A DNA stretch of 44,160 nucleotides from a virus, in the IMG/VR virus record IMGVR_UViG_3300021256_000026, positions 1 to 44,160 of that record. The stretch is one strand, 5' to 3'. The notes under the pieces are model-generated. The model was not told the origin of the DNA. It saw nothing but the letters and a program-made list of their open reading frames with translations, and did no database searches. The translations under genes and the position numbers were made by a program. Below are positions 4,233 through 44,160 of the stretch, in pieces (positions within the stretch are counted from its first letter, which is position 1; the number at the start of each line of letters is the position of its first letter).

Positions 4233-4320
4233 ACGATTATTTTCCCGACTGTCATAGACAATAAAGAGCACCCGGACGGGTGCTCCCTAAAAGTATATTC
4301 AAACTAACAAAAGAGCCGTA

Positions 4321-4908
4321 TTACTCTCCTGCTGCTGCAGTGAGAAGATTCACGGTGTCACCCTCATAGCACAGTGCTCGTGGAGCGCTGTATGTGAAGT
4401 TCAGCGACGCCTGGTTGCGCTCTGTCGGGTTGGTTCCTGTTACGAAACCTTCCGAGTCGTTGGCAAGACGAGCACCACGTTTTGCATCGCCCATGAGGTA
4501 GTACACCCCATTGTTGTCCTGGACGATGAAGAAAATCTTCTTGCCCTTGACAGCGTTGACAAAACCGAGAATCTTCTTACGGATCTTGGCGTTGATGATG
4601 CTGAGAGTGTAGAGGAACGACTCTCCACCGTTCTCGCCCTGAGGCTTGATTGAGAACGAACCGACATCGTCGGTGAACTCGAACTTGTAAGCACGGCATC
4701 CTTTGTTCATCACAACGTCACCCACGAGAGCGCCCGCCTTTTCCATATCTATTGCCGTTTCTGCCGCTTCTGGTGTCGGCTTCTCCGGCCACGTACCCAC
4801 CTCGTCAGCATATCCGAAGATGACAACCGGCACGATGCCGCCCATGTTGTCCTGGTCACTGCATGACAGGTTGGTGTCGATGTCTGCAAGATTTATACAA
4901 TTCTTCAT
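4321..4908 (-). CDS. Hypothetical virion-module protein (195 aa)
   Basis: ORF 11 nt downstream of the putative capsid gene on the same strand. No motif recognised. Confidence 0.65.
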   Translation of the reverse strand: MKNCINLADIDTNLSCSDQDNMGGIVPVVIFGYADEVGTWPEKPTPEAAETAIDMEKAGALVGDVVMNKGCRAYKFEFTDDVGSFSIKPQGENGGESFLYTLSIINAKIRKKILGFVNAVKGKKIFFIVQDNNGVYYLMGDAKRGARLANDSEGFVTGTNPTERNQASLNFTYSAPRALCYEGDTVNLLTAAAGE

Positions 4909-4919
4909 GGCGGTGAGAT

Positions 4920-5906
4920 TTAGGCGGTTGGTGTGAGAGGCTTGTCATTCACGCAGAAGAGTTCCTTACCGATGTAAGGTATCTGCGTTCCGAACACATA
5001 CTTACCGAGAGCCTTGAACAGATAGTCGTCAGGTACGGCCTTGATGGTGCGCATGTCGCTCATCTTGTCGAAGCCGAACGCGATGTTCTCCTTGATGGTG
5101 AGGAGTACGAACTGGCTTCCCTCTGGCAGGTCAGGAACTCGCACGAGTTCGCACTTGCCCTTAGAGCCATGGAGGAACTGCTGCTTAGTCTCATCAGCGG
5201 TCTTGCCTACGTCGTGCACACCAGGGTGCTCGTCTGAGAACCAGTCGTCGTACATGTCGCCGAGGTCGTCGGAGATGAACATCTTCGAGTTCATGCGGCG
5301 GAAGATAGTGTTGCGCGAGCGCCACATCTTCAGCAGTTCGTCGCCGATGTTGGCGCGTGTCATTGTAGCAGTGGCCACGAGGTTTCCGAGAGCGGCAGTA
5401 ATCTTTCCTGCTGTCTTCTCCGCCTCGATGATGGTACCGATACCGTCGAAAGAGTCGGCGATATCCGTCTTGTTGGCTGCGGCATCGAACTTGGCTGTAA
5501 ACAGCACATTGAGAAGGTCGAACGAAGCCTGGTTGAGAATCTCCTGGACGAGCCAGAGTTCGAACGGGTGCTTTGCAATCTCAATCTTACCGCGCACCTC
5601 GGTGACGTAAGAACGACGATAGCGCTCCGGCTCGTCGAGCACCTCCATCACGACAGGGTGAACAGTAAGCGTACGCGGAATAAACTCACCGATATGAGTC
5701 TGTCCCTTGAAAACACCGGTGTACTTACTAGACACCTTCTGCAGCACAGCCTTCGTGAAGGTGTACGAGTCAGTGATGCCAGCGAAAGCAGTGAAGTGCT
5801 GAAGCACCTCGTTGGCACCCAGACGCGGAATAGCGTCAAGTGTCTTTCCATGTTTCTTCACCGCGGTATTGACGGCGGTGATGTCAATAGGATCGTTGTA
5901 ATTCAT
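4920..5906 (-). CDS. Putative major capsid protein
   Basis: 328-aa ORF immediately downstream of the protease-scaffold gene, the usual protease-capsid order. Called by position and size only. Confidence 0.55.
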   Translation of the reverse strand: MNYNDPIDITAVNTAVKKHGKTLDAIPRLGANEVLQHFTAFAGITDSYTFTKAVLQKVSSKYTGVFKGQTHIGEFIPRTLTVHPVVMEVLDEPERYRRSYVTEVRGKIEIAKHPFELWLVQEILNQASFDLLNVLFTAKFDAAANKTDIADSFDGIGTIIEAEKTAGKITAALGNLVATATMTRANIGDELLKMWRSRNTIFRRMNSKMFISDDLGDMYDDWFSDEHPGVHDVGKTADETKQQFLHGSKGKCELVRVPDLPEGSQFVLLTIKENIAFGFDKMSDMRTIKAVPDDYLFKALGKYVFGTQIPYIGKELFCVNDKPLTPTA

Positions 5907-5946
5907 ATAATAACGTGTTATGTGTTAGTGATAAGTGATGGCTCGA

Positions 5947-7065
5947 TTACTCCTCTTCGTAGAAGTTGATGGGGTCCTTACGGATATCCTCGTACTCGTC
6001 TTTGTTCCCATCCTCCTGCTTTGCCGGCTGCTCTACGGGAGCGGGAATTTTATCGAAGAGTTCCTTAATCTTCGCCGTTTTATTGGCGATGCCGTCAATG
6101 CTCTTAATCATGTCACTGAGCGAGTCGAGAGAGTCAGAGGCCTCCTTCAGGTTGTCCTCCGCAGTTTTCTTGGCAGAGTTGGCGTCTGCCAGTTGCTTGT
6201 TAAGGTCATCAATAGCCTTCTTGTTCTTGGCAAGTTCGTCGTTGATGGCCTTCATCTGGTCTTCCGTGAGGGTGAAGTTACCCTCTGCAGACTGTGTGAA
6301 GCCTACTACAGCGAGCAGGGCATTCAGCATAGTGAAGATTGTGTTCATGTTGTCAATATGTTGAGTTGTTGAAATGGGTTGTTCGTTGGCGGTTGAGGGT
6401 TGAGCGTTGAGATTTTCGGTCTTGGGAGACACCAGTCCGAGTTTCTCCGCTACGCGCTGCAGCAGAGACTTCTCCACCTCCACACCTTCCGGCATCGGTA
6501 TAGCGCAGTTCTTGAAGTTCTTTGCGAGAGAGTTGGTCACCTTCTTTCCAGAAGGTTCCGCTATCACCTCGTCGACGAAACCATATTCCTTGCACTCCTG
6601 AGCGGTGAGCCATGGATGTTCCTGCATCAGTTTCAGCATCTCGTCCTTAGACTTGCCAGAACGTGCAGCATACTTGTTGGCAATCATCTCATCCATCTTC
6701 TCGAGAGAACGAATCTCCCCGTCGATGTCTTCGCCCAGTTCCTTCAGTTCCTCGGCGTTCATCTGCTGCCACAAGAAGTATTCTATCGAAGAGCAGTGCA
6801 CGTAGAGCATGCAGTCCTCGTGCATCTTGATTGACTTCGCTCCAAACGGCAGCCATGTTGCCGCGCTTGCATTGAGCGAGTCATGTATCACCGTCACATC
6901 TCCGTGCTCCTGGATAGCATGAGATATGGCGATGGCATCCGCGATGCTGCCACCATAGGATGCTATGCGCAGCGTCACTGGTGACCCTTTAGCCTTCCTG
7001 AGATTATAGCATACATCCCATCGGGTGTAGCGTCCAATCTCGCCATCAATTCTTATTTCTACCAT
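5947..7065 (-). CDS. ClpP-like prohead protease fused to a C-terminal coiled-coil scaffold domain
   Basis: ClpP/S14-like stretches IASYGGSIADAIAI, NASAATWL and LTAQECKEYGFVDEV. The last ~170 aa are coiled-coil-like. The start was moved from 7134 to 7065 (MVEIRIDGEIG) because a -7 box at 7137-7144 would put the transcription start downstream of 7134. Confidence 0.7.
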   Translation of the reverse strand: MVEIRIDGEIGRYTRWDVCYNLRKAKGSPVTLRIASYGGSIADAIAISHAIQEHGDVTVIHDSLNASAATWLPFGAKSIKMHEDCMLYVHCSSIEYFLWQQMNAEELKELGEDIDGEIRSLEKMDEMIANKYAARSGKSKDEMLKLMQEHPWLTAQECKEYGFVDEVIAEPSGKKVTNSLAKNFKNCAIPMPEGVEVEKSLLQRVAEKLGLVSPKTENLNAQPSTANEQPISTTQHIDNMNTIFTMLNALLAVVGFTQSAEGNFTLTEDQMKAINDELAKNKKAIDDLNKQLADANSAKKTAEDNLKEASDSLDSLSDMIKSIDGIANKTAKIKELFDKIPAPVEQPAKQEDGNKDEYEDIRKDPINFYEEE

Positions 7066-7136
7066 AGTGTGAAAATTTTTGCGATAGCCCCTAAGTGCCG
7101 AGGAAATCTCTCGGCATGCGGAGCCTTCTTCCATCG

Positions 7137-7709: not shown

Positions 7710-8315
7710 TCAAATCGTTTCAGTGTATTGTTGGAGATTATGGAGGAACGTGTTTGTCGCCTGCTTTTGGAGCAGTCCAGTTTTGGTCAAAATTAGAAAC
7801 ACATTTTCTGATGTTTTTAACATTATTTCGCTAATCGCAGGATAAATCCCCTTTGGGATATTCCTCGACAGGTCTTTACGGATGCTGTCGTCAGACCAGT
7901 CGTCCTCATCAATCCCGGTTGCTATGCGGAACACGTCGATAGCCTTTGCCGTGGAATATCCGAGGCTCTGAAGAGTTGACACGTTAGTTCTGAGCAGCGC
8001 CTTGACTCGCATCTCCAGTTCGTTGTTGAACTCCACCACCTCATACGGTGTAAGTTCCCAACCGTACGTGTTGAAGATACGCCTGTTTATCTCTATCGCC
8101 ACCTGGTCGTTGTAGCGTGACAGTTCACCATCAACATTGTTGAGGTGTCCCTGTCTGGATAGATGGTTGCGGAACGACTGTTGCAGCACCCTGTCAGGAG
8201 AGAGGTCAGCAATCTCCTTCCATTGGTCATCCGGTTTGTTGAAGTTGGCGAGCAGCCACTTCTTGGTGTAATGCTTGCACGGCAGCCACACCGCCCATCG
8301 CTCTTTTTTCTCCAT
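7710..8315 (-). CDS. Hypothetical protein (201 aa), first gene of the head operon
   Basis: ORF preceded by a -7 box at 8344-8351. Confidence 0.65.
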   Translation of the reverse strand: MEKKERWAVWLPCKHYTKKWLLANFNKPDDQWKEIADLSPDRVLQQSFRNHLSRQGHLNNVDGELSRYNDQVAIEINRRIFNTYGWELTPYEVVEFNNELEMRVKALLRTNVSTLQSLGYSTAKAIDVFRIATGIDEDDWSDDSIRKDLSRNIPKGIYPAISEIMLKTSENVFLILTKTGLLQKQATNTFLHNLQQYTETI

Positions 8316-8343
8316 AGGTTAGTCTGATACTGTTAGTTTAATG

Positions 8344-8351
8344 CAAAATTA
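8344..8351 (-). promoter_or_regulatory. Bacteroidota-type -7 promoter box (TAATTTTG)
   Basis: Plus-strand caaaatta, 28 nt upstream of ATG 8315. Confidence 0.55.
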
Positions 8352-8430
8352 ATCAATTATCTACGAAAAACTTCAAATATCGTTGAAATATTTTTTCGTA
8401 TTGTTTTGTTTTCGGAGAAAAAAGAGAAAA

Positions 8431-8697
8431 AAGTGAAACAGCGGAACATTTGCGACATAAGTTACTGATAATCAGCAGAGGTTAGGTGTTTCACTTTTGT
8501 GTTTCACTTTTTTTTGAGTTGAAAAGTGAAACAGAAACAACGGTGTAAACGGCTGAGAGACAGAAACTTGCGTTTCTCTTTTTCACCTTCTATTGAAAAG
8601 TGAAACAAAAGTGAAACAAAAAGTGAAACATTTGTAACGAGTTGATTTTTAAATAATTATACACTTTTTCTTCCCCTCTGTTTCCATTGTTTCACTT
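8431..8697. repeat. Iteron array: 8 copies of AAGTGAAACA in an AT-rich intergenic region (candidate origin or operator array)
   Basis: Plus-orientation copies at 8431, 8524, 8598, 8609 and 8621. Inverted copies (tgtttcactt) at 8487, 8500 and 8688. Three copies are tandem at 11-12 bp spacing. Confidence 0.8.
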
Positions 8698-8753
8698 TTT
8701 TTTAAATAAAACAAATTTTGAAAAAATGAAAGAAAAAATTAACGGCGGAGGGC

Positions 8754-8791
8754 AAAAAAAGAGGCGGCGTTGCAAAGTGCAACACCGCCTC
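8754..8791 (-). terminator. Rho-independent terminator (minus strand)
   Basis: Hairpin 8761-8791 (gaggcgg/ccgcctc plus gttgc/gcaac). Seven A on the plus strand (8754-8760) give a U-run after the hairpin in minus sense. Confidence 0.75.
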
Positions 8792-9408
8792 GTCAAATCA
8801 CCTTCAGGAACAGATGATACGCGTCGTCACGACGCTGGAAAGTTTAGAAATGTGTACTAAAAATAAAGATATATGAGAAGTGACACTGTTCCGGTGGTGG
8901 TGAGAGTGCGCGGAGTCGGACCGCGCTTCGTGGTAGAAATGGTTGCGGTCTTATCTTGTAAGGTCGCAATCATCATCCCTCCCCTATCCGTGATGGAGGG
9001 CATCACTCTCGTAAAGAGCCCCCAAATGAGAGATTGGGGGTGGGGTCTTTCCCTCCTGTCAAAATACCGTCAACCACCGTCTTAGGGCGATTGGTACAAC
9101 ATTGTGGAATTAACAGCATTAGCAATCTTCAGAACGTTCACCTGGTCTCCGAATCAGTCTTAGGTACAGTGCTTTCGCCCGGCGGGATTCGCACCCGCGA
9201 GACCGCCTTTTCGGTCTCATTTTGATCCGTTGTTCAAAATTTTGTTAACTCTCTCATGGCATTTCTGCCGCTGTTTCTCTGCCGCTGCAGATAGTGGAAC
9301 TGGGTGGAATCGAACCACCGCTCACCTAGGCGTTTTAATCCGCTGCAGGTTGCCCATTGCCTGCTTTCAGTCCCGGGTGCCGGTCTTTCCCGGCTGTCAT
9401 GGAAGGCC
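8792..9408 (-). ncRNA. Candidate large structured non-coding RNA region (family unknown; strand tentative)
   Basis: No credible ORF on either strand although GC is coding-like. Nested helices: 8892-8898/9073-9079, 8902-8908/9004-9010 and 9085-9090/9175-9180. Hairpins: 8909-8925, 8941-8971, 8977-9000, 9019-9040, 9182-9198 and 9199-9218. The region ends at the terminator at 8754-8791. Confidence 0.4.
9295..9374 (-). ncRNA. tRNA-like element; not a canonical tRNA
   Basis: Minus sense has a perfect T-arm GGTGG-TTCGATT-CCACC. A 7-bp acceptor-like stem GGGACTG/CAGTTCC includes a G3:U70-type wobble. A D-like hairpin is GCAGG...CCTGC. No 5-bp anticodon stem can be drawn. Confidence 0.4.
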
Positions 9409-9690
9409 TCAAGCCTCTGTCCGTTCCATTGAGAAGGCCGTGGTAGATTGTTTTGCCTTGACGCGGGAAATCTCGACAAATATCACGTTGCACTTATCCT
9501 TACGGGTGTATGGCGTGCACGCGAGGTTGTGCTTATGGCACTGGATTTGTTTTAGCCCGTGTCTGGCGAGGTTATTTCGAGTGAAGAAACACCCATTGCA
9601 CAACGGCAGATTGCCAATTTGCTGTTGCACTTGCAATGTGTGGCCACTGTATGTGGTTGTTCTTGTTAGTTTGATATATTTCTTTTTCAT
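9409..9690 (-). CDS. Possible small Cys/His-rich protein (93 aa)
   Basis: The ATG lies 2 nt after the primase-helicase stop. It contains CNGC...CHKHNLAC. Its 3' part overlaps predicted RNA helices, so coding status is uncertain. Confidence 0.35.
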   Translation of the reverse strand: MKKKYIKLTRTTTYSGHTLQVQQQIGNLPLCNGCFFTRNNLARHGLKQIQCHKHNLACTPYTRKDKCNVIFVEISRVKAKQSTTAFSMERTEA

Positions 9691-9692
9691 GC

Positions 9693-12600
9693 TCAGAATG
9701 CTTTGTCACTGTTGATATAAGGGTCTTTCTCGCCTGCCACCGCCAGACCTGACAACTTAGCCTGGTCCTCATCGTTTTGGCGTATTAGTTTCTCCAGAGC
9801 CTCGCGGTTAGTCCTTATATAAATATATTCCGTCGGCTCTCCTGGTCCTCCCATGGGAGTCTCCTTGCGCCTGAGGATATGTCCCGGCTTCGATGTCGCG
9901 CACAGTTCCTTTGGATTGAACTCATCGGTGTAAGAGCACCACGACACGAAGGCCTTCATCTTGCGGTAGAACATATTCGTTGTGATGTCCTTCATGTTGT
10001 ACTTCGTTCTGAAGTCATTGATTGCCACATCACGCTCCACGAGTACATCGAGGCGCTTGCTGTCCACCGAGAAGTATTCTGTAGCCCATTCCGTGAACTT
10101 ATCGGCCATCGTCATGCGCGATGAGCGCAGCATGATGTTATCCATGGGCGGCTGTATCTTCACCCCAGAGGGTGCCAGGGAGATGTAGAACTTGACGCAC
10201 TGCATTAGCAGATTAAAATCAGCGTTCCACTCTTCCTCGCTGTAGTCACCACCCATCAAGTCCTTGTCGAAGTCGTCGCGTATGGTGCGAGTCTCGTGAT
10301 ACTCGTCAGACCCTTGCGTAGCGGTATGATAGTAGTCGCTGTTCACCATGTAGAGCATACGGCGGTCTGAAGAGCCGTCGAATATCTTAGGAACGTAGTT
10401 GGTGGTGAACGCGAACTTCGGCGACTGTTCGAAGGGTATGAAGAACTGGTTCAGGTTCTTGGGGTTGACGGTGAGTCCACCTGTGATGTTCGAGTAAAAC
10501 GTCTCGAACGGGAAATCTCTGAAGAGGTCATCGACGAGCACCATGCGGGTGTACCTGGTTACGCTTGCGAACTTGAAGTTGTTGTCCGCCACGTTTTTCT
10601 GCTTGCCGTCGAGTTTCGTCGAGTTGATGATTTTCGGCAGCACCTGCTCGAAGAGGAACGACTTACCGGTACCACCGTTAGCCTCGCCCATCTCGTCGAG
10701 TTTCCAGTCCATGGCAAACGCAGCGTATGAGCGAGACTGCTGCTTGTATCCCCAGCCGAAGTAACCTATGATGAACAGTTTGTTGGCGAGGCACCTCATC
10801 TGCTTGGCGTTCTCCTCCTCGGAGAGAGCCGGAGAAGTTATCTGGAACTTATGCTCACGTCGATAGGTGCGCCTTAGGTTGTCCGCATCAGGAGCATCCT
10901 CAAACGGTGCCTCCATCTCCTTGCGCCAGAACAGGCGCGAACTATTGATAAGGAACCCGAGTATGTTGGAACGGTGCTTCTCCTCCGGAAACGACACCTC
11001 CCAGTCCTCAGTGTTGTCATCGTTGCACTTTTTCTTGACCTCAAACATCGGGGAGAGGGGTTTGAAGTCATGCTGGATAATCTGGTCTTCCCAAACGTAA
11101 AACTTCAGTTTGGCAGCATCCTGCTTCCTGATGAATTCGATGCCAGAGGCAGACACCTTGACTGTTCCGTTCCGGAATGGGAAGAACTGAGCGCGGTTGG
11201 TGTAGTTGGTGAAGTCCAGTTCCACCGTGTCCACCTTCTCGAGTGCAGAAGGAGAACACTTAGGCGAGTCGATGATTAGATTCTGCACCGCCACCGGCTG
11301 CACCTCAGAGCGTTTGTCCTTATAACCAGGAATACACTCTTTGCCTTGTGACCAACGGATAAGGAACTCCGTCATGTCCGCAGGCGTCACCCGTTGCACC
11401 ACGTTGCCGTCGATGCGGATAAATATCGTCTCTCCACTCTCGCGGTCGCGCAATTTATGATATCCGTTGAGACGCATGAAGTACAGTAGTGACACGGAAT
11501 TGACCTCGTATTTCTCCTTGCCGTTCTTCAGTGTCGTCTTGGTCCAGAACGTTGCCGGCAATGCCTGGTCGAGAAGTCTGTTGAAAGTAGTCTGACAGTC
11601 CTCCACCACTTCGGTGAAGTCCTTGAAATCCTTTCGGTAGTGATGGCGGTTGTCGTGGTACTTCTGGAAGTAGTCCGGCAGCCACACCGTACGGATGTCG
11701 AGATGTCGCAGCGCGTGGTATGTGCCACGTTGCAGTCCTGTCTCGTCCTTATCAGGGATATTGTATATGACATCGGCGCACTGCAGTATCTGCTTCTCCT
11801 GCCATGCTTCCAGTTCGTCAGTCTCGGAGTTGAGCCAAATGGGGAAACCGCCGAGAGCCTTGACGGCAGCGCAGTCACGTTCTCCGCTTGCCATGACAGC
11901 AGCCTTGAACTTCTTATACTCGAGAGTTTTCCCCTCATTGGTGGGGTCGCTGTCGAAGTCCTGCTCCTGCTGCCTCTTGAACTTGCCGTATGCCTCGCGC
12001 AGTTCGTAGAGACCATTGACGTAACTGCGTTCTCGCTTTCCGGCAACCATGAAGCGGTACGCCTTGTTGAACTCGAGCGGTTTATAAATCTTGTAGAACG
12101 ACGGTTTGTTGTCACCCGGCTTTCCGCACTTGCATTCGCGTGCGTAGATGGGGTAATCGTCGCATGAATATGCCTTTGTCACCATGCCACCCTTGGCAAC
12201 ACCACACCACACCACCGGGTGCCAGTTGAGCGACTCCATCACTTCCTGAGTGACGAGTTCTCCGAACACCTCGAGTTCTCGCTTGGTGAAGGTGTCGTCG
12301 TCGCGGAGTTCGTAGAGGACAGTGCCCTCGGGTGCCTCTGTAGGTACCTTCTCAATCTTCAGCGGTTTGTTGCGTTCGGGCTTGATGTCGTCGACATCAA
12401 GGTTCAGTTGCGTCACAATCCACGCCACAGCCTCCTTGAAGCCCTGAAGGTTGCACTCTTTGATAACCCAGTCGAAGCAGTTCCTGGGGATGCCGTCGTC
12501 ACCGAAGTCAGTAGCCACCCAGTGCTGTTCATCGCCCTGTCCTATCTGCTTCAGATGCGCCGAGCCGGTTCGCTCGTCCGGACGGATTTTGAAGTTCTTG

Positions 12601-12728
12601 TGATAGTCACCGTTGTCGATCAGGCGTTTGGCGTCGTCCCATAGGATGCGAAAAACGTCTAATCCACCGTTGGTGGCTCTATAGATGGTCTCTTTTTTTA
12701 TCATGATTATGCTCTTTTGCGTATGCAA
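9693..12728 (-). CDS. Primase (Toprim) fused to an SF3/D5-P4-type helicase
   Basis: 1011 aa. Toprim-like GERDCAAV ... IPDKDETG, Walker A GGTGKSF and Walker B-like MVLVDDL. Confidence 0.8.
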   Translation of the reverse strand: MHTQKSIIMIKKETIYRATNGGLDVFRILWDDAKRLIDNGDYHKNFKIRPDERTGSAHLKQIGQGDEQHWVATDFGDDGIPRNCFDWVIKECNLQGFKEAVAWIVTQLNLDVDDIKPERNKPLKIEKVPTEAPEGTVLYELRDDDTFTKRELEVFGELVTQEVMESLNWHPVVWCGVAKGGMVTKAYSCDDYPIYARECKCGKPGDNKPSFYKIYKPLEFNKAYRFMVAGKRERSYVNGLYELREAYGKFKRQQEQDFDSDPTNEGKTLEYKKFKAAVMASGERDCAAVKALGGFPIWLNSETDELEAWQEKQILQCADVIYNIPDKDETGLQRGTYHALRHLDIRTVWLPDYFQKYHDNRHHYRKDFKDFTEVVEDCQTTFNRLLDQALPATFWTKTTLKNGKEKYEVNSVSLLYFMRLNGYHKLRDRESGETIFIRIDGNVVQRVTPADMTEFLIRWSQGKECIPGYKDKRSEVQPVAVQNLIIDSPKCSPSALEKVDTVELDFTNYTNRAQFFPFRNGTVKVSASGIEFIRKQDAAKLKFYVWEDQIIQHDFKPLSPMFEVKKKCNDDNTEDWEVSFPEEKHRSNILGFLINSSRLFWRKEMEAPFEDAPDADNLRRTYRREHKFQITSPALSEEENAKQMRCLANKLFIIGYFGWGYKQQSRSYAAFAMDWKLDEMGEANGGTGKSFLFEQVLPKIINSTKLDGKQKNVADNNFKFASVTRYTRMVLVDDLFRDFPFETFYSNITGGLTVNPKNLNQFFIPFEQSPKFAFTTNYVPKIFDGSSDRRMLYMVNSDYYHTATQGSDEYHETRTIRDDFDKDLMGGDYSEEEWNADFNLLMQCVKFYISLAPSGVKIQPPMDNIMLRSSRMTMADKFTEWATEYFSVDSKRLDVLVERDVAINDFRTKYNMKDITTNMFYRKMKAFVSWCSYTDEFNPKELCATSKPGHILRRKETPMGGPGEPTEYIYIRTNREALEKLIRQNDEDQAKLSGLAVAGEKDPYINSDKAF

Positions 12729-13879: not shown

Positions 13880-14758
13880 TTAGTGATGTCCTTTCTTTAC
13901 TTTCAGATGTCCGTGCTTACGATAGAGAGCATTGAGGTCTGCATCACAGAGAATGGTGTCGTACAATTGCTCGTAGGTGTATTCCTTCATCGTTTCCCAT
14001 ATCTGGGGAACGGTCAAGTCGCATTCTATCTTCTTTTGCAACTCATACCGCTGCTCATCGGTGAGGTCTATCACCTGGTAGTCGCCGTCCTTGTATTGGT
14101 TTTGCCGTTCCTGTTCGCGCTGCTTCTCTTGTCGTTCTATCATGGCAGAATACTTGATGCCCCACCGATGCAGCCAGCGTGCAAGCGTGTTGCGGTCGAT
14201 GTTGAAGTTAGCGGCAAGCCTACGTTCAGGCACTCCCCAATTATATTGCTCAATGATTTTCTCTTTCTGTTCGGGTGTGAAGGCGACGCTTTCGGTTGAC
14301 TTGATGCCTGGAGGTCTGCCAAGCATCACACCGAGTTTCATTCTCAGTCGCAAACCTTCCTTCGTTCTTTGCCGTATCATCTGACGCTCGATTTCAGCAG
14401 CCAGTCCGAAGGCGAAAGCAAGCACCTTCGACTGTATGTTGTCGTCGAGAGCGAAGTTGTCTTTGACGGTGTAAATCTTGCACCCCGTCTTCATGCAGAA
14501 GTGCAGAATATCCATCACCATGTAGAGGTCACGTCCCAGTCGGCTAATCTCAGCCGCTATCACGATGTCGTCTTTTTTCAGTTTCTTCAGCAGCGGGCCG
14601 AGGTTACGCTTGTCGGGGTCTTTGCCGCCACTCACCCCCTCGTCGGTGATGTATTCGTCAATCTTCCATTCACGGGCTTCGGCAAACTTCACCACGCCCT
14701 GTTTCTGTGAGTTCACGTCCTGCTCGTCGGACGATACCCGTAAATAACCGTAAATCAT
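13880..14758 (-). CDS. Small serine recombinase (resolvase/invertase family) with a ~90-aa C-terminal extension
   Basis: N-terminal YLRVSSDEQ catalytic motif and ISRLGRD. HTH-like segment RRLAANFNIDRNTLARWL. An extra charged tail follows the HTH. Confidence 0.8.
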   Translation of the reverse strand: MIYGYLRVSSDEQDVNSQKQGVVKFAEAREWKIDEYITDEGVSGGKDPDKRNLGPLLKKLKKDDIVIAAEISRLGRDLYMVMDILHFCMKTGCKIYTVKDNFALDDNIQSKVLAFAFGLAAEIERQMIRQRTKEGLRLRMKLGVMLGRPPGIKSTESVAFTPEQKEKIIEQYNWGVPERRLAANFNIDRNTLARWLHRWGIKYSAMIERQEKQREQERQNQYKDGDYQVIDLTDEQRYELQKKIECDLTVPQIWETMKEYTYEQLYDTILCDADLNALYRKHGHLKVKKGHH

Positions 14759-17782: not shown

Positions 17783-17850
17783 GCACCCGAGTATGGTGAT
17801 TTTTTTGAGTAATAAGAACGTGGTTTGTGTCTTCAAGAAAATTTGAAGAT

Positions 17851-19029
17851 ATGAACAAAAAAAATTTATCTTTGTCAGTTCGGCGCATACCTGTAATAGA
17901 ATGGACTGCGCCGATGTTTCACCAAGGTAAGGAGAACTACGTGGACTTCTACGCCTTTGACCCTGCTGCCGGCAGAATGCGGCGCAAGAAGGTGATGGTT
18001 GACAAGTTCCACACCAAGAAGGCGATGTGCAGTTACGCCAAACAAGTTATTGGCGAACTGACTCAGAAACTGATGCGCGGTTGGAATCCCTGGGTGGAGA
18101 CAAAGAGCGCTGCACAGTTTGTTCCATGGGAGGAGGTGTGCAGCAGATACCACCAGTACGTGGTGAAGTTGAACAACGACCATTCGTTCCGCGACGAGAC
18201 GATGCGCGACTACCTGTCACGTCTGAAGGTTCTTCAGGAGTGGGTGGCCACGTCACACTTCTCTGTGTATTACACCTATCAGTTGGATGAGTTTGTTGTG
18301 CTTCAGTTCCTCGACGAGATGTTCGTTGAGCGCAACTGGTCGCCCCAGACATACAACAACTATGTAGTATGGCTGAAGGGCTTCTGCAGATGGCTTATTG
18401 AGCGTCGGTACATCCACGATGACCCAACTGTAGGCATCAAGAGGGTGCGAAAGACCACGTCGAAGAACCGCACCGTAATTCCGGACCCGGTACTGACTAA
18501 CGTCAGGAAATACCTGGAGGAGCACAACAAGCACTTCCTCCTGGCGTGTCATATCCTCCACTACATGTTCATCCGTCCACATGAGATGTCTCTGCTGAAG
18601 ATAGGCGACTTCCATCTGCAGAAGAAGACGCTGGTGCTGCATGACGACCAGACGAAGAACCGTCAGAGTGCCGTTGTCACCCTGCCCGACCATATAGTGC
18701 GTCTGATGGTGGAACTTGAGGTGTTCCGTCATGCCGACTCCGACTACCTCTTCTCAGATGGTTTTGCACCAGGCAGTAAGTGGCGCGACTCGAAGCAGTT
18801 CCGTGACTACTGGAACAACCATATCCGTAAGGACCTACGCCTTCCTGCGGAATACAAGTTCTACTCTCTGAAGGACACCGGCATCACCAACATGCTGCGC
18901 TCCAACACCGACCCTCTGAGTGTTCGTGACCAGGCACGTCACTCGTCGCTGCTTATAACCAACACGTACACCCCTCTTGACATCAAAGATGCCAATCCGC
19001 TTATACTTGGCTACCGTGGAGTGCTCTGA
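17851..19029 (+). CDS. int: Tyrosine recombinase / phage integrase
   Basis: About 392 aa. The C-terminal catalytic region has RPHEMSLL and ARHSSLLITNTYT (H-x-x-R ... Y). ATG 17851 is preferred over GTG 17827. Confidence 0.8.
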   Translation: MNKKNLSLSVRRIPVIEWTAPMFHQGKENYVDFYAFDPAAGRMRRKKVMVDKFHTKKAMCSYAKQVIGELTQKLMRGWNPWVETKSAAQFVPWEEVCSRYHQYVVKLNNDHSFRDETMRDYLSRLKVLQEWVATSHFSVYYTYQLDEFVVLQFLDEMFVERNWSPQTYNNYVVWLKGFCRWLIERRYIHDDPTVGIKRVRKTTSKNRTVIPDPVLTNVRKYLEEHNKHFLLACHILHYMFIRPHEMSLLKIGDFHLQKKTLVLHDDQTKNRQSAVVTLPDHIVRLMVELEVFRHADSDYLFSDGFAPGSKWRDSKQFRDYWNNHIRKDLRLPAEYKFYSLKDTGITNMLRSNTDPLSVRDQARHSSLLITNTYTPLDIKDANPLILGYRGVL

Positions 19030-43343: not shown

Positions 43344-44036
43344 ATGAAAAAACCATTGAACAAGTACAATGATTTATGCAAGGAGGAGCGCCCTGAGGTT
43401 AAGGGTGCTTCTCTGGGTATTAACACGCTCACCAACGTTGAGTTGGTGTCGTTAGTGTTGAACAGAGGTGCCGGTACATACGACAGCATGCACCAGGCCC
43501 GTCAGATGTTGAACATCTGCAATGAGAGTCTTCGAGAGTTGTCAGGGAAACGTCTCGACGAGTTAGAGGTAGTTCCCGGCATCGGTCACTGCAAGGCACT
43601 GGCGCTGATGGCCGCGATAGAGTTAGGCAAGCGTTACTCAGCAGAGGAACACCGCGAGCAGCCTGACTTAGGTTCTGCGAGCAGAATCTACAATCTGCTA
43701 TCTCCTAAGTTGAGTGACCTCGACCATGAAGAGATGTGGCTGGTGTTCATGAACCACAACTACAAGTTGATTAGTTGCGAACGTCTGTCCATCGGCGGTA
43801 TCACTGAGACTGCGGTTGACGTAAGAATAATCATCCGTCAGGCAGTCTTAAAGAACTCTACAGTGATAGCGATGGCGCACAATCACCCCTCGGGCAACCT
43901 TCGTCCATCTAAGGATGACGACGGTCTCACCTCTCGGGTGAAGAAAGCATGCGAACTCATGCGTCTGTTTCTTCTCGACCATTTGGTAATATCCTCGAGT
44001 GGATATTACTCTTATAGAGAATCAGGGAGGCTTTAG
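43344..44036 (+). CDS. radC: RadC-like JAB/MPN-domain protein
   Basis: N-terminal HhH-like region (VPGIGHCKALALMAAIELGKR). JAMM-type motif MAHNHPSGNLRPSKDD. ATG 43344 is preferred over 43299. Confidence 0.85.
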   Translation: MKKPLNKYNDLCKEERPEVKGASLGINTLTNVELVSLVLNRGAGTYDSMHQARQMLNICNESLRELSGKRLDELEVVPGIGHCKALALMAAIELGKRYSAEEHREQPDLGSASRIYNLLSPKLSDLDHEEMWLVFMNHNYKLISCERLSIGGITETAVDVRIIIRQAVLKNSTVIAMAHNHPSGNLRPSKDDDGLTSRVKKACELMRLFLLDHLVISSSGYYSYRESGRL

Positions 44037-44058
44037 CCTCTCTGTTTCTTTTTTTTTG
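44025..44058 (+). terminator. Rho-independent terminator after radC
   Basis: gggaggc-ttta-gcctctc (one G-U pair) followed by tgtttcttttttttt. It spans the circular junction. Confidence 0.6.
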
Positions 44059-44160
44059 TTAGAATCGAGGAGAAACGAATGAGGAAGATGTGATTAGTTT
44101 TAGTCGTTCGCCGTACTTCGTCCAGATACATTTATCTGCTGTATCTCCGAAGTGAGTTGC
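44034..44160. repeat. Terminal direct repeat, copy 2 (circular-assembly overlap)
   Basis: Identical to 1-127. Confidence 0.9.

Follow-up and report, generated by a model that had tools for sequence, protein, structure and literature searches.

The stretch of DNA analysed here, referred to below as the window, is the whole 44,160-nt IMG/VR virus record IMGVR_UViG_3300021256_000026. Its positions 1-127 are repeated identically at 44034-44160, and the window therefore shows a circularly closed, complete phage genome of about 44.0 kb. Our subject is the interval 8792-9408, beyond the 3' end of the primase-helicase gene, where a tRNA-like cloverleaf (9295-9374) is followed on the minus strand by an optional RNA cassette free of open reading frames (ORFs), here called module Y (8836-9294). 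The locus is real, non-coding, structured and probably expressed. A sequence-only reading had seen in it a candidate large structured RNA in a region of 600-900 nt; a non-coding, structured and probably transcribed region is indeed what was found, but about 460 nt of it is an optional cassette that is missing from close relatives.

The locus and its coding status

The phage is temperate, with a tyrosine integrase (17827-19029) and a serine recombinase (13880-14758), and a ClpP-like protease is encoded at 5947-7134. The sequencing runs that contain the region are from bovine and sheep gut or rumen. A genome scan gave a single match, the metagenome-assembled genome of the uncultured Prevotellaceae bacterium RUG064, in which a copy identical to relative L002 lies inside a 143-kb contig. 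The features of the locus, from the primase-helicase gene to the terminator, are as follows.

9693-12728, minus: DUF5906 primase-helicase gene, with its stop at 9693.
9409-9690, minus: 93-aa Cys-rich ORF, the last protein gene of the early operon.
9379-9394, minus: leader hairpin GCCGG-GAAAGA-CCGGC, directly upstream of the tRNA-like element.
9295-9374, minus: tRNA-like cloverleaf of 80 nt, tRNA-Leu(UAA)-like, recognised by covariation and by ARAGORN at a relaxed setting.
8836-9294, minus: module Y, an optional ORF-free structured RNA cassette of 459 nt, recognised by presence and absence in relatives, non-periodicity, consensus fold and RNA contigs.
8821-8835, minus: hairpin GCGUCG-UGA-CGACGC (helix 23 of the consensus fold), at the onset of the backbone common to all phages of the clade.
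8761-8791, minus: intrinsic terminator of the early operon and RNA cassette, a 14-bp stem with nine G-C pairs followed by TTTTTTT on the minus strand only.

The 93-aa ORF is a real gene and not part of the RNA: 11 database proteins match it at 59-99% identity, and its variable sites are distributed 23:9:9 over the codon positions. The non-coding stretch is therefore 8792-9408. Within 8836-9294 the variable sites among relatives are distributed 31:29:25, without codon periodicity, against 59:2:7 in the primase and 47:3:2 in a 201-aa ORF that served as controls. ORFs of 40-70 aa do exist on both strands of the interval, but their changes are mostly non-synonymous, and indels of 1, 2, 3, 5, 7 and 12 nt, frame-breaking ones included, are tolerated. 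For these reasons 8792-9408 is non-coding, as the sequence-only reading had judged; a protein-coding signal, which it had named as telling against its proposal, was looked for in 8836-9294 and none was found. A database search with a 63-aa ORF of the interval gave no match, and a 70-aa ORF was rejected as a gene, since the proteins that match it merely translate the same RNA locus and it has no independent homologues. The coding-like GC content that had been pointed out is real (0.49-0.55 over 8800-9400, against 0.31-0.35 in the AT-rich spacer 8300-8800), as is the strong minus-strand terminator.

Searches for known RNAs were negative. Infernal cmscan with the 4227 families of Rfam 15, the search that had been called for, gave no hit at gathering scores in the window or in relatives L001-L006. 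At relaxed E values (up to 10 for 8600-9800, up to 1 for positions 1200-2500 of relative L020, and for the tRNA-like elements alone) only sub-threshold noise appeared, and GOLLD and ROOL, the families of ornate RNA that had been suggested, were listed neither for 8600-9800 at E ≤ 10 nor for L020 1200-2500 at E ≤ 1. A match to CRISPR-DR54 at 9058-9097 (19.2 bits, E 0.87), considered as a possible CRISPR-repeat mimic, was treated as chance. The tmRNA model (RF00023) reached 19.4 bits against a gathering score of 47, aligning only an acceptor stem and T arm and skipping 328 model positions; tmRNA was rejected, since ARAGORN finds none and there is no conserved short ORF ending in a stop. It is thus very improbable that the interval is a known family (GOLLD, ROOL, tmRNA, RNase P RNA, a group I or II intron or a CRISPR-repeat mimic) or encodes a small protein, even though its rumen origin, phage context and neighbouring tRNA-like element recall ROOL and GOLLD (PMC5737381), and weak CRISPR-DR54 and tmRNA-domain matches and short ORFs can be listed in favour.

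The tRNA-like element and its optional cassette

The sequence-only reading had noted a canonical T arm. This lies at 9303-9319 on the minus strand, as part of a whole cloverleaf that the reading had missed.

9368-9374/9296-9302, minus: acceptor stem GGGACUG/CAGUUCC, 7 bp.
9360-9364/9345-9349, minus: D arm GCAGG-CAAUGGGCAA-CCUGC, with GG in the loop.
9320-9344, minus: degenerate anticodon and variable region, containing the conserved CGGAUUAAAACGCCUAGG.
9315-9319/9303-9307, minus: T arm GGTGG-TTCGATT-CCACC, 5 bp, with loop UUCGAUU.
9295, minus: discriminator A, with no encoded CCA.

Conservation was assessed in alignment A4, which holds 17 sequences, 85-97% identical and all from one narrow clade; its variants were gathered by using the spurious 70-aa ORF as bait and fetching the contigs that encode it. 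All 22 pairs in the four helices of the tRNA-like element are kept at 100% over 16 distinct variants; six of them show compensatory change, and none of 500 shuffles matches the observed percentage paired or the covariation score. The anticodon region, AGCGG-AUUAAAA-CGCCU, carries C.C and G.G mismatches in all variants of the window's type (B), and is worse in type A; a variable region of 9 nt lies between it and the T arm. The leader hairpin is invariant in A4 and has undergone a G-C to C-G swap in L021 (GCCCG/CGGGC).

The sequence of the stems differs widely between types. Type B itself includes variants with acceptor GGAACGG/CCGUUCC, T arm GUGGG-ACCGUUA-CCCAC and D-arm stem GAAGA/UCUUC. Type A (L003, L004, L016 and L022) has GCGCACG/CGUGCGC, UUCUCA/UGAGAA and CGGGG-UUCGACU-CCUCG, while type C, found in L020, is truncated to the acceptor and T arms. 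The acceptor and T stems of types A and C are entirely different in sequence from those of the window, with complementarity kept. A minihelix of a 7-bp acceptor stem and a 5-bp T arm is retained in all types, the truncated one included; a coaxial minihelix of this kind, with a single-stranded 5' leader and 3' trailer, is the form expected of a substrate of RNase P and RNase Z. The T loop is UUCGAUU in the window, L001, L019 and L044, UUCGACU in type A, and ACCGUUA or AUCGUUA in 11 other variants.

The element appears to be derived from a tRNA-Leu(UAA)-type gene. It has in common with such tRNAs, and with the tRNA domain of tmRNA, the 7-bp acceptor stem, the 5-bp T stem, UUCGAUU, the D-loop GG, an anticodon-like loop AUUAAAA and the discriminator A. 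It departs from them in the two anticodon-stem mismatches, the absence of an encoded CCA, sub-threshold scores and the T loop ACCGUUA of many variants; the tag ORF and pseudoknot set of tmRNA are also absent at the locus. Standard tools pass over it: ARAGORN at default settings reports no tRNA or tmRNA gene in the window or in L001-L006 and calls a tRNA-Leu(taa) on 9295-9374 only at -ps80, and no model of the Rfam tRNA clan (CL00001) reaches its gathering score on the element.

A motif CAGCGG(C/A) occurs three times on the minus strand in this neighbourhood (9258-9291 and 9339-9347), as CCUGCAGCGGAUU inside the tRNA-like element and as UCUGCAGCGGCAGA and ACAGCGGCAGA, and in the block 9254-9283 one of 30 columns is variable. 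To judge from these letters, the repetition could be the trace of a duplication or a binding site.

Relatives whose primases are 88-99% identical differ sharply between the primase stop and the homology boundary at 8835. Their arrangements over this part of the genome are listed here.

L004, primase stop to 8835: tRNA-like A alone.
L003 and L022, primase stop to 8835: one ORF and tRNA-like A.
L016, primase stop to 8835: three ORFs and tRNA-like A.
L021: ORFs and tRNA-like B, the contig stopping at the tRNA-like element.
The window, L001, L002, L019 and L035-L046: Cys-rich ORF, tRNA-like B and module Y of about 460 nt.
L020: as the window type, with module X and the truncated tRNA-like C between B and Y.

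L001 and L002 have an additional ORF upstream of the Cys-rich one, and an ORF related to the 93-aa ORF (CxGC...RKDxxxVIFVxV) precedes the tRNA-like element in L016 and L021. Y is present in the window, L001, L002, L019, L020 and L035-L046 and absent from L003, L004, L016 and L022, although the primases of these Y-less phages are 88-93% identical to that of the window; it is an optional cassette gained or lost among close relatives. Module X (L020 1425-1830) is likewise ORF-free and about 400 nt long, and folds better than chance (z = -3.97), and forms with and without X occur together in one DNA run (X8). X and Y have no significant similarity; a pattern of hairpin pairs that they seem to have in common was seen by eye only. 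The region has no match by blastn in the INPHARED phage collection, and scans of IMG/VR with exact and degenerate patterns (five Y motifs, the tRNA-like loop and the ends of divergent RNA contigs) returned the same contigs or nothing; one pattern hit in a high-GC phage, L009, was treated as chance.

That the element is constant while Y is optional raises the question of whether the tRNA-like element is itself the product, either an unusual tRNA or a molecule that imitates one, perhaps as a decoy for an anticodon nuclease or as a ligand of some protein that recognises tRNA, with Y a hitch-hiking insertion at its 3' end. The anticodon-equivalent CGGAUUAAAACGCCUAGG is its most conserved part, common to type A (L003) and type B despite their different stems, and Y and X both start right behind the discriminator, where insertions at tRNA genes classically lie. 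We nevertheless think this improbable. Two conserved anticodon-stem mismatches and a T loop that is non-canonical in many variants suit a working tRNA poorly, and the middle segment of the element differs in L004 and L016. Nor are the marks of an integration event present: there is no attL/attR-type duplication of the 3' half flanking Y, and the nearest integrase, that at 17827-19029, is not adjacent to it.

Fold and strand of module Y

Folding of the region gives a minimum free energy z score, relative to dinucleotide shuffles, of -3.74 on the minus and -2.28 on the plus strand, and none of 20 shuffles folds as well on either. The RNAalifold consensus of A4 on the minus strand has 122 pairs, with 99.3% of pair cells standard. 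Its 10 compensatory pairs in Y compare with 3.7±1.2 in shuffles (0 of 500 equal it) and with 0-1 when partners are slid, so that the covariation among related phages that had been proposed as a check was obtained, in 17 sequences. Variable columns make up 16% of paired and 25% of unpaired positions. In this model Y is a structured RNA of about a dozen helices, with a four-way junction and two T-loop-like hairpins in addition to that of the cloverleaf.

9278-9291, minus: helix with evolutionary support in the consensus fold.
9223-9229/9150-9156, minus: closing stem of a four-way junction (helices 8-11), with one compensatory pair.
9199-9218, minus: hairpin of the four-way junction, 100% paired; its 10 G.U cells, at two pairs whose partner varies among the 16 distinct rows, form pairs on the minus strand alone.
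9182-9198, minus: hairpin with T-loop-like loop UGCGAAU and one compensatory pair.
9167-9181, minus: hairpin with GNRA-type loop and one compensatory pair.
9098-9148, minus: core of about 50 nt, (CCAGG)...GACGUUCUGAAGAUUGCUAAUGCUGUUAAUUCC, nearly invariant in A4 and the only part common to divergent RNA contigs.
9072-9092, minus: helix with evolutionary support in the consensus fold.
9019-9040, minus: hairpin CCCCCAA-N8-UUGGGGG (helix 18), with a compensatory C-G to G-C change in L035 and U.G in L036.
9014-9018/9006-9010, minus: hairpin CUCUU/GAGAG (helix 19), with pairing kept through eight U.G cells.
9001-9006/8990-8995, minus: hairpin GUGAUG/CAUCAC, within 8977-9018.
8938-8974, minus: stem GAUGAUUG/CAACCAUU with a variable loop (helix 21), 99.2% paired, with G.U changes.
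8894-8926, minus: T-loop-like hairpin GCGCGG-UCCGACU-CCGCGC, then CACUCUC-A-CCA-CCACC (helix 22), invariant where present.

The pairings drawn in the sequence-only reading are all in the sequence: the helices cggtggt/accaccg (8892-8898/9073-9079), gagagtg/cactctc (8902-8908/9004-9010) and gggcga/tcgccc (9085-9090/9175-9180), the hairpins 8909-8925, 8941-8971, 8977-9000, 9019-9040, 9182-9198 and 9199-9218, the two copies of ccctcc at 8977 and 9051, and the palindrome GAACGTTC at 9132-9139. Evolution has treated them unequally. Most of the local hairpins are kept over the 17 variants, 9199-9218 fully, 9182-9198 and 9019-9040 with compensatory change and 8909-8925 without any change. The closing helix of the supposed second domain, 9085-9090/9175-9180, is broken in most variants (75% paired on the minus strand, 82% on the plus), and conservation fails in the inner part of helix 8941-8971 (38% on the minus).

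The pairing of ccctcc with ggaggg never varies. On the minus strand CCCUCC (8995-9000), in the loop of GUGAUG/CAUCAC, can pair with GGAGGG (8977-8982) as helix 20. Because GUGAUG/CAUCAC competes with this invariant helix, the two together are a candidate pseudoknot or switch in the model. At pair 9002-8994 the 17 rows have U-A four times, C-G eight times, U.G twice and C.A three times.

Several smaller features of Y bear on its history. The 44-kb genome has four hairpins like a T arm (5-bp stem and TNCRANN loop), of which three lie in 8909-9319, each of these on the minus strand; that at 8894-8926 looks like a tRNA's 3' half, encoded CCA included. Taken with the sequence up to 9012, GAGAGUG...CGCGG-UCCGACU-CCGCG-CACUCUC-A-CCA resembles an over-long (113-nt) tRNA-like unit, an ambiguous resemblance since the ‘acceptor’ has one G.U and one A.C variant and competes with hairpin 9006-9018. 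A mini-tmRNA reading of 8894-9012 was rejected: the variants do not keep its short ORF DCDLTR*, and ARAGORN makes no call there. In L035 a natural deletion of 8873-8931 takes out the T-loop-like hairpin and the ACCACCACC tail, and this variant has also lost the sequence at 9130-9135, the predicted long-range partner of 8888-8893. L037 and L038 have a 12-nt tandem duplication, AACCTTACAAGA, in a hairpin loop at the equivalent of about 8955. The Y of the window lacks a 7-nt segment between 9140 and 9141 (minus) that is present in nearly all relatives, where it forms a small AGG-GAAA/GUGA-CCU hairpin; the RNA contigs have the longer form. The end of Y, CACCACCGGAACAG, recalls the leader and 5' acceptor strand of a further B-type unit, a likeness that would fit tandem ‘tRNA-like plus RNA’ units reshuffled by recombination.

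Such remnants could also be what is left of a decayed phage tRNA array, shuffled by recombination, whose stems persist because they are young and GC-rich and which has no present function. A Leu(UAA)-like cloverleaf that fails the default detectors, two more T-arm-like hairpins, one of them followed by A-CCA, the truncated element of L020, the tolerance of deletions and duplications (L035, L037) and a near-neutral divergence would all suit this history. Decay, however, should not leave 10 compensatory pairs and 99.3% paired cells, beyond all 500 shuffles, nor acceptor, D and T stems that are 100% kept through two-sided changes. The anticodon stem stays broken in the same way instead of drifting, the four-way junction departs from the order of tRNA arms, and related RNAs are expressed. 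We therefore regard a functionless relic as unlikely.

The sequence-only reading had left the strand ambiguous. Minus sense has the better support for the tRNA-like element and for the 5' half of Y, because of the direction of the operon, the terminator, the tRNA-like element, variation confined to G.U pairs, and consensus energy (-124.1 kcal/mol on the minus against -106.2 on the plus strand for the whole; -48.0 against -33.5 for the 5' half). The G.U-only variation that favours minus is in the acceptor stem, 9199-9218, 9006-9018 and 9019-9040, and the terminator and the TNCRANN loops read properly on the minus strand only. The ambiguity does hold for the 3' half, which is neutral (-57.1 minus, -57.6 plus), and an exhaustive enumeration of helices in five variants was too noisy for a strand call.

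Two of these results weigh against a wholly minus-strand RNA: the neutrality of the 3' half, and helix 8892-8898/9073-9079, which is 100% paired on the plus strand (14 G.U cells) and 85.7% on the minus. The first-drawn structure as a whole is also better paired on the plus strand (94.4%, against 90.3%), and a terminator-like site lies on that strand at 9199-9218, followed by AUUUUGA. They could be accommodated by a plus-strand RNA made from the 3' half (about 8870-9225), or from a part of it, that would converge on the tail of the operon, lie antisense to it and end at this site, and the RNA contigs, being directionless, would be compatible with it. However, the hairpin 9199-9218 read as plus has an A.C mismatch in nine of 16 variants (89.3% paired), no convincing plus-strand promoter was found upstream, the 5' half is strongly minus, and minus is also the strand of the T-loop-type loops, of the tRNA-like element and of the strong terminator. 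A plus-strand product of the 3' half accordingly seems improbable, though it, or a bidirectional one, may exist there.

Expression, proposed processing and relation to known RNAs

The RNA evidence consists of unstranded, assembled contigs of low depth, and depth is a poor measure of expression. In three rumen or sheep metatranscriptome assemblies, contigs of 152-226 nt at a depth of about 3, similar to that of the capsid and protease region, cover 9043-9282, two of them beginning at 9282, 13 nt past the 3' end of the tRNA-like element. Across four rumen metatranscriptome assemblies, coverage of the phage is best over the capsid and ClpP-like protease region (4300-7100, depth 2-10), a pattern that suggests lytic genes being actively expressed in situ. 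The primase is nearly absent from the RNA runs, with one 186-nt contig (run X21), and runs X22 and X23 have contigs over Y and none over the 93-aa ORF or primase.

Other contigs share with the window only the core of about 50 nt of Y (about 9098-9148), with divergent flanks: 228 nt in X21, 258 nt in X22 (depth 10.9) and 492 nt in X25 (depth 17.6). A 312-nt contig of depth 22 from sheep-rumen run X22 matches the first 85 nt or so of module X and then diverges. X21 and X22 are RNA runs and the type of X25 is unrecorded. Judging by these matches, Y and X appear to have more distant relatives, three of them in assemblies of RNA runs and one in a run of unrecorded type.

These data bear on a simpler view, in which the tRNA-like element and Y form a structured 3' untranslated region that stabilises or terminates the early mRNA in cis against 3' exonucleases, with no separate RNA and no role in trans. 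Consistent with it, every member of the clade, Y-less ones included, has a tRNA-like element right behind its last ORF and ahead of the terminator; the only promoter-like site before Y is a weak candidate, with the RNA contigs starting upstream of it; and constraint outside the stems is weak. On the other hand, the contigs of X22 and X23 lie over Y and not over the upstream 93-aa ORF or the primase, 460 nt with a core common to divergent expressed RNAs exceeds the needs of a stabiliser, and relatives whose primase is 69% identical have no cassette and do with a simple terminator 144 nt past the primase gene. A purely cis-acting element thus seems unlikely, if less so than the other alternatives.

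We are about evenly divided between accepting and doubting a fuller reading, in which the interval is the non-coding, minus-strand tail of an early (replication) operon, composed of the tRNA-like cloverleaf and an optional Y, processed by tRNA enzymes and carrying Y as accessory cargo. A polycistronic minus-strand transcript of the early operon would end at the terminator 8761-8791. The 5' end of the tRNA-like element would be recognised by host RNase P, and a nuclease that processes tRNA 3' ends, RNase Z or another, would cut after the discriminator. Three products would result: the mRNA, a small RNA of tRNA-like form, and Y as a free, terminator-capped RNA that accumulates. The tRNA-like elements would double as homology joints for the exchange of RNA modules (Y, X) and small ORFs between related phages. 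Y itself would be dispensable for replication and most likely serve in phage-host or phage-phage conflict or in regulation.

Some findings weigh against this processed-tail reading. The RNA evidence is of low-depth, unstranded contigs that may reflect carry-over of DNA, and it gives a single hint of cleavage, the start of two contigs at 9282. The T loop is non-canonical (ACCGUUA) in about half of the B-type variants. The covariation comes from one narrow clade, and the structure was derived from the same alignment that was used to test it. The variability of Y, about 18-25% of columns, is near that of third codon positions in the neighbouring genes, and constraint outside its stems is for that reason weak. 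A tRNA-like element is also found in the Y-less L003, L004, L016 and L022; because it is present where no Y follows, release of Y is not its sole purpose. Finally, no target or partner protein emerged: there is no complement of the conserved tRNA-like loop within three mismatches in the phage genome, and a duplex scan with the Y core gave no outstanding target. Confidence is limited by sampling that is phylogenetically narrow and by RNA data that carry no strand.

A tRNA-like processing signal offers the best functional analogy to the cloverleaf. The mascRNA of MALAT1, the similar element of MEN-beta and the t-elements of plant mitochondria are tRNA-like elements in non-tRNA transcripts that are cut by RNase P and RNase Z (PMC4919922). 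As in those cases, the cloverleaf here lies in what would be a longer transcript, at the junction of RNA parts, with acceptor and T arms intact and the anticodon arm defective; in contrast to them, it is neither eukaryotic nor organellar and lies between an mRNA and a downstream non-coding RNA. L003 gave a weak partial hit to the mascRNA model (12.3 bits).

Among phage RNAs, the C4 antisense RNA of P1/P7 is processed by RNase P (PMC4919922 and its reference 206). The C4 model in Rfam had no hit to the locus. The CI RNA of P4 is a phage small RNA cut from a longer early or immunity transcript by host tRNA-processing enzymes, and P4 has an alpha-type primase-helicase with iterons. The likeness lies in small phage RNAs being made from longer transcripts and in a primase-helicase and iterons that recall the DUF5906 protein beside GTGAAACA repeats; the difference is that C4 and P4 CI are antisense RNAs of 70-80 nt with known complementary targets. 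Species 1 and 2 of the T4 tRNA cluster are stable non-tRNA RNAs of about 140 nt, of unknown function, co-transcribed and co-processed with tRNA units. These lie among genuine tRNA genes, whereas here the tRNA-type unit is degenerate and the RNA about 460 nt long.

To our knowledge, GOLLD and ROOL are among the least understood bacterial RNAs, and almost nothing comparable has been described in Bacteroidota or their phages. Both are multi-helix RNAs of several hundred nucleotides, often in prophages next to tRNAs and possibly co-transcribed with them, ROOL having been first found in cow rumen; their function is unknown (PMC5737381). The present locus is like them (RF03087, RF01998) in its rumen source, its prophage with integrase, its adjoining tRNA-type unit and its ORF-free length of several hundred nucleotides. 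It differs in having no sequence or structure match at E ≤ 10, in its Prevotellaceae (Bacteroidota) host and in its confinement to one narrow phage clade plus the core of about 50 nt in RNA contigs, and there is no evidence here of multistem-junction and pseudoknot complexity on that scale or of oligomeric cages. It does not belong to GOLLD or ROOL, and a single large ornate fold is not supported.

A broader proposal, which we offer as a long shot, is a modular system for RNA cargo. Temperate Prevotellaceae phages would swap unrelated structured RNAs (Y, X and their more divergent and more abundant rumen relatives) at tRNA-like elements that act both as cut sites and as recombination joints, so carrying moron-like, RNA-only accessory factors, for example for anti-defence or superinfection exclusion. 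The ~50-nt core would then mark a wider family of expressed large non-coding RNAs of rumen Bacteroidota. If the tRNA-like element is both a processing site and a recombination joint, it would be a counterpart in bacterial viruses of tRNA punctuation and of mascRNA-type 3'-end formation, and a route by which phages may carry RNA-only accessory cargo. The locus is tractable, with a boundary set by the tRNA-like unit, a second interchangeable module (X) and signs of expression in rumen metatranscriptomes, and the natural presence and absence alleles of Y in otherwise near-identical phages make an isogenic comparison possible. On the conservative reading alone, annotators are warned that such tRNA-like units escape standard tRNA finders.

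Some observations concern the surroundings of the locus. The Cys-rich family of the 93-aa ORF (CxGC...RKDxxxVIFVxV, 75-117 aa; members at 9409-9690 and in L016, L021 and L023-L030) has no match in Pfam or PHROG and occurs also in unrelated phage replication modules, adjoining NinG, RecT and DUF6633 genes; when the loci of these homologues in other phages were checked for RNA, ORFs were found in its place. The AT-rich spacer at 8417-8703 contains at least eight copies of GTGAAACA/TGTTTCAC in both orientations (families D9 and D12; inverted pairs I2, I7 and I14). They are kept even in the 69%-identity relatives that have no RNA cassette, and are probably iterons of a replication origin, or an operator or promoter region, beside the P4-alpha-like primase-helicase. 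Elsewhere in the genome there are direct repeats of 58 nt (39904-39961/40427-40484, 93% identical) and of 110 nt (21960-22069/22224-22333, 86% identical).

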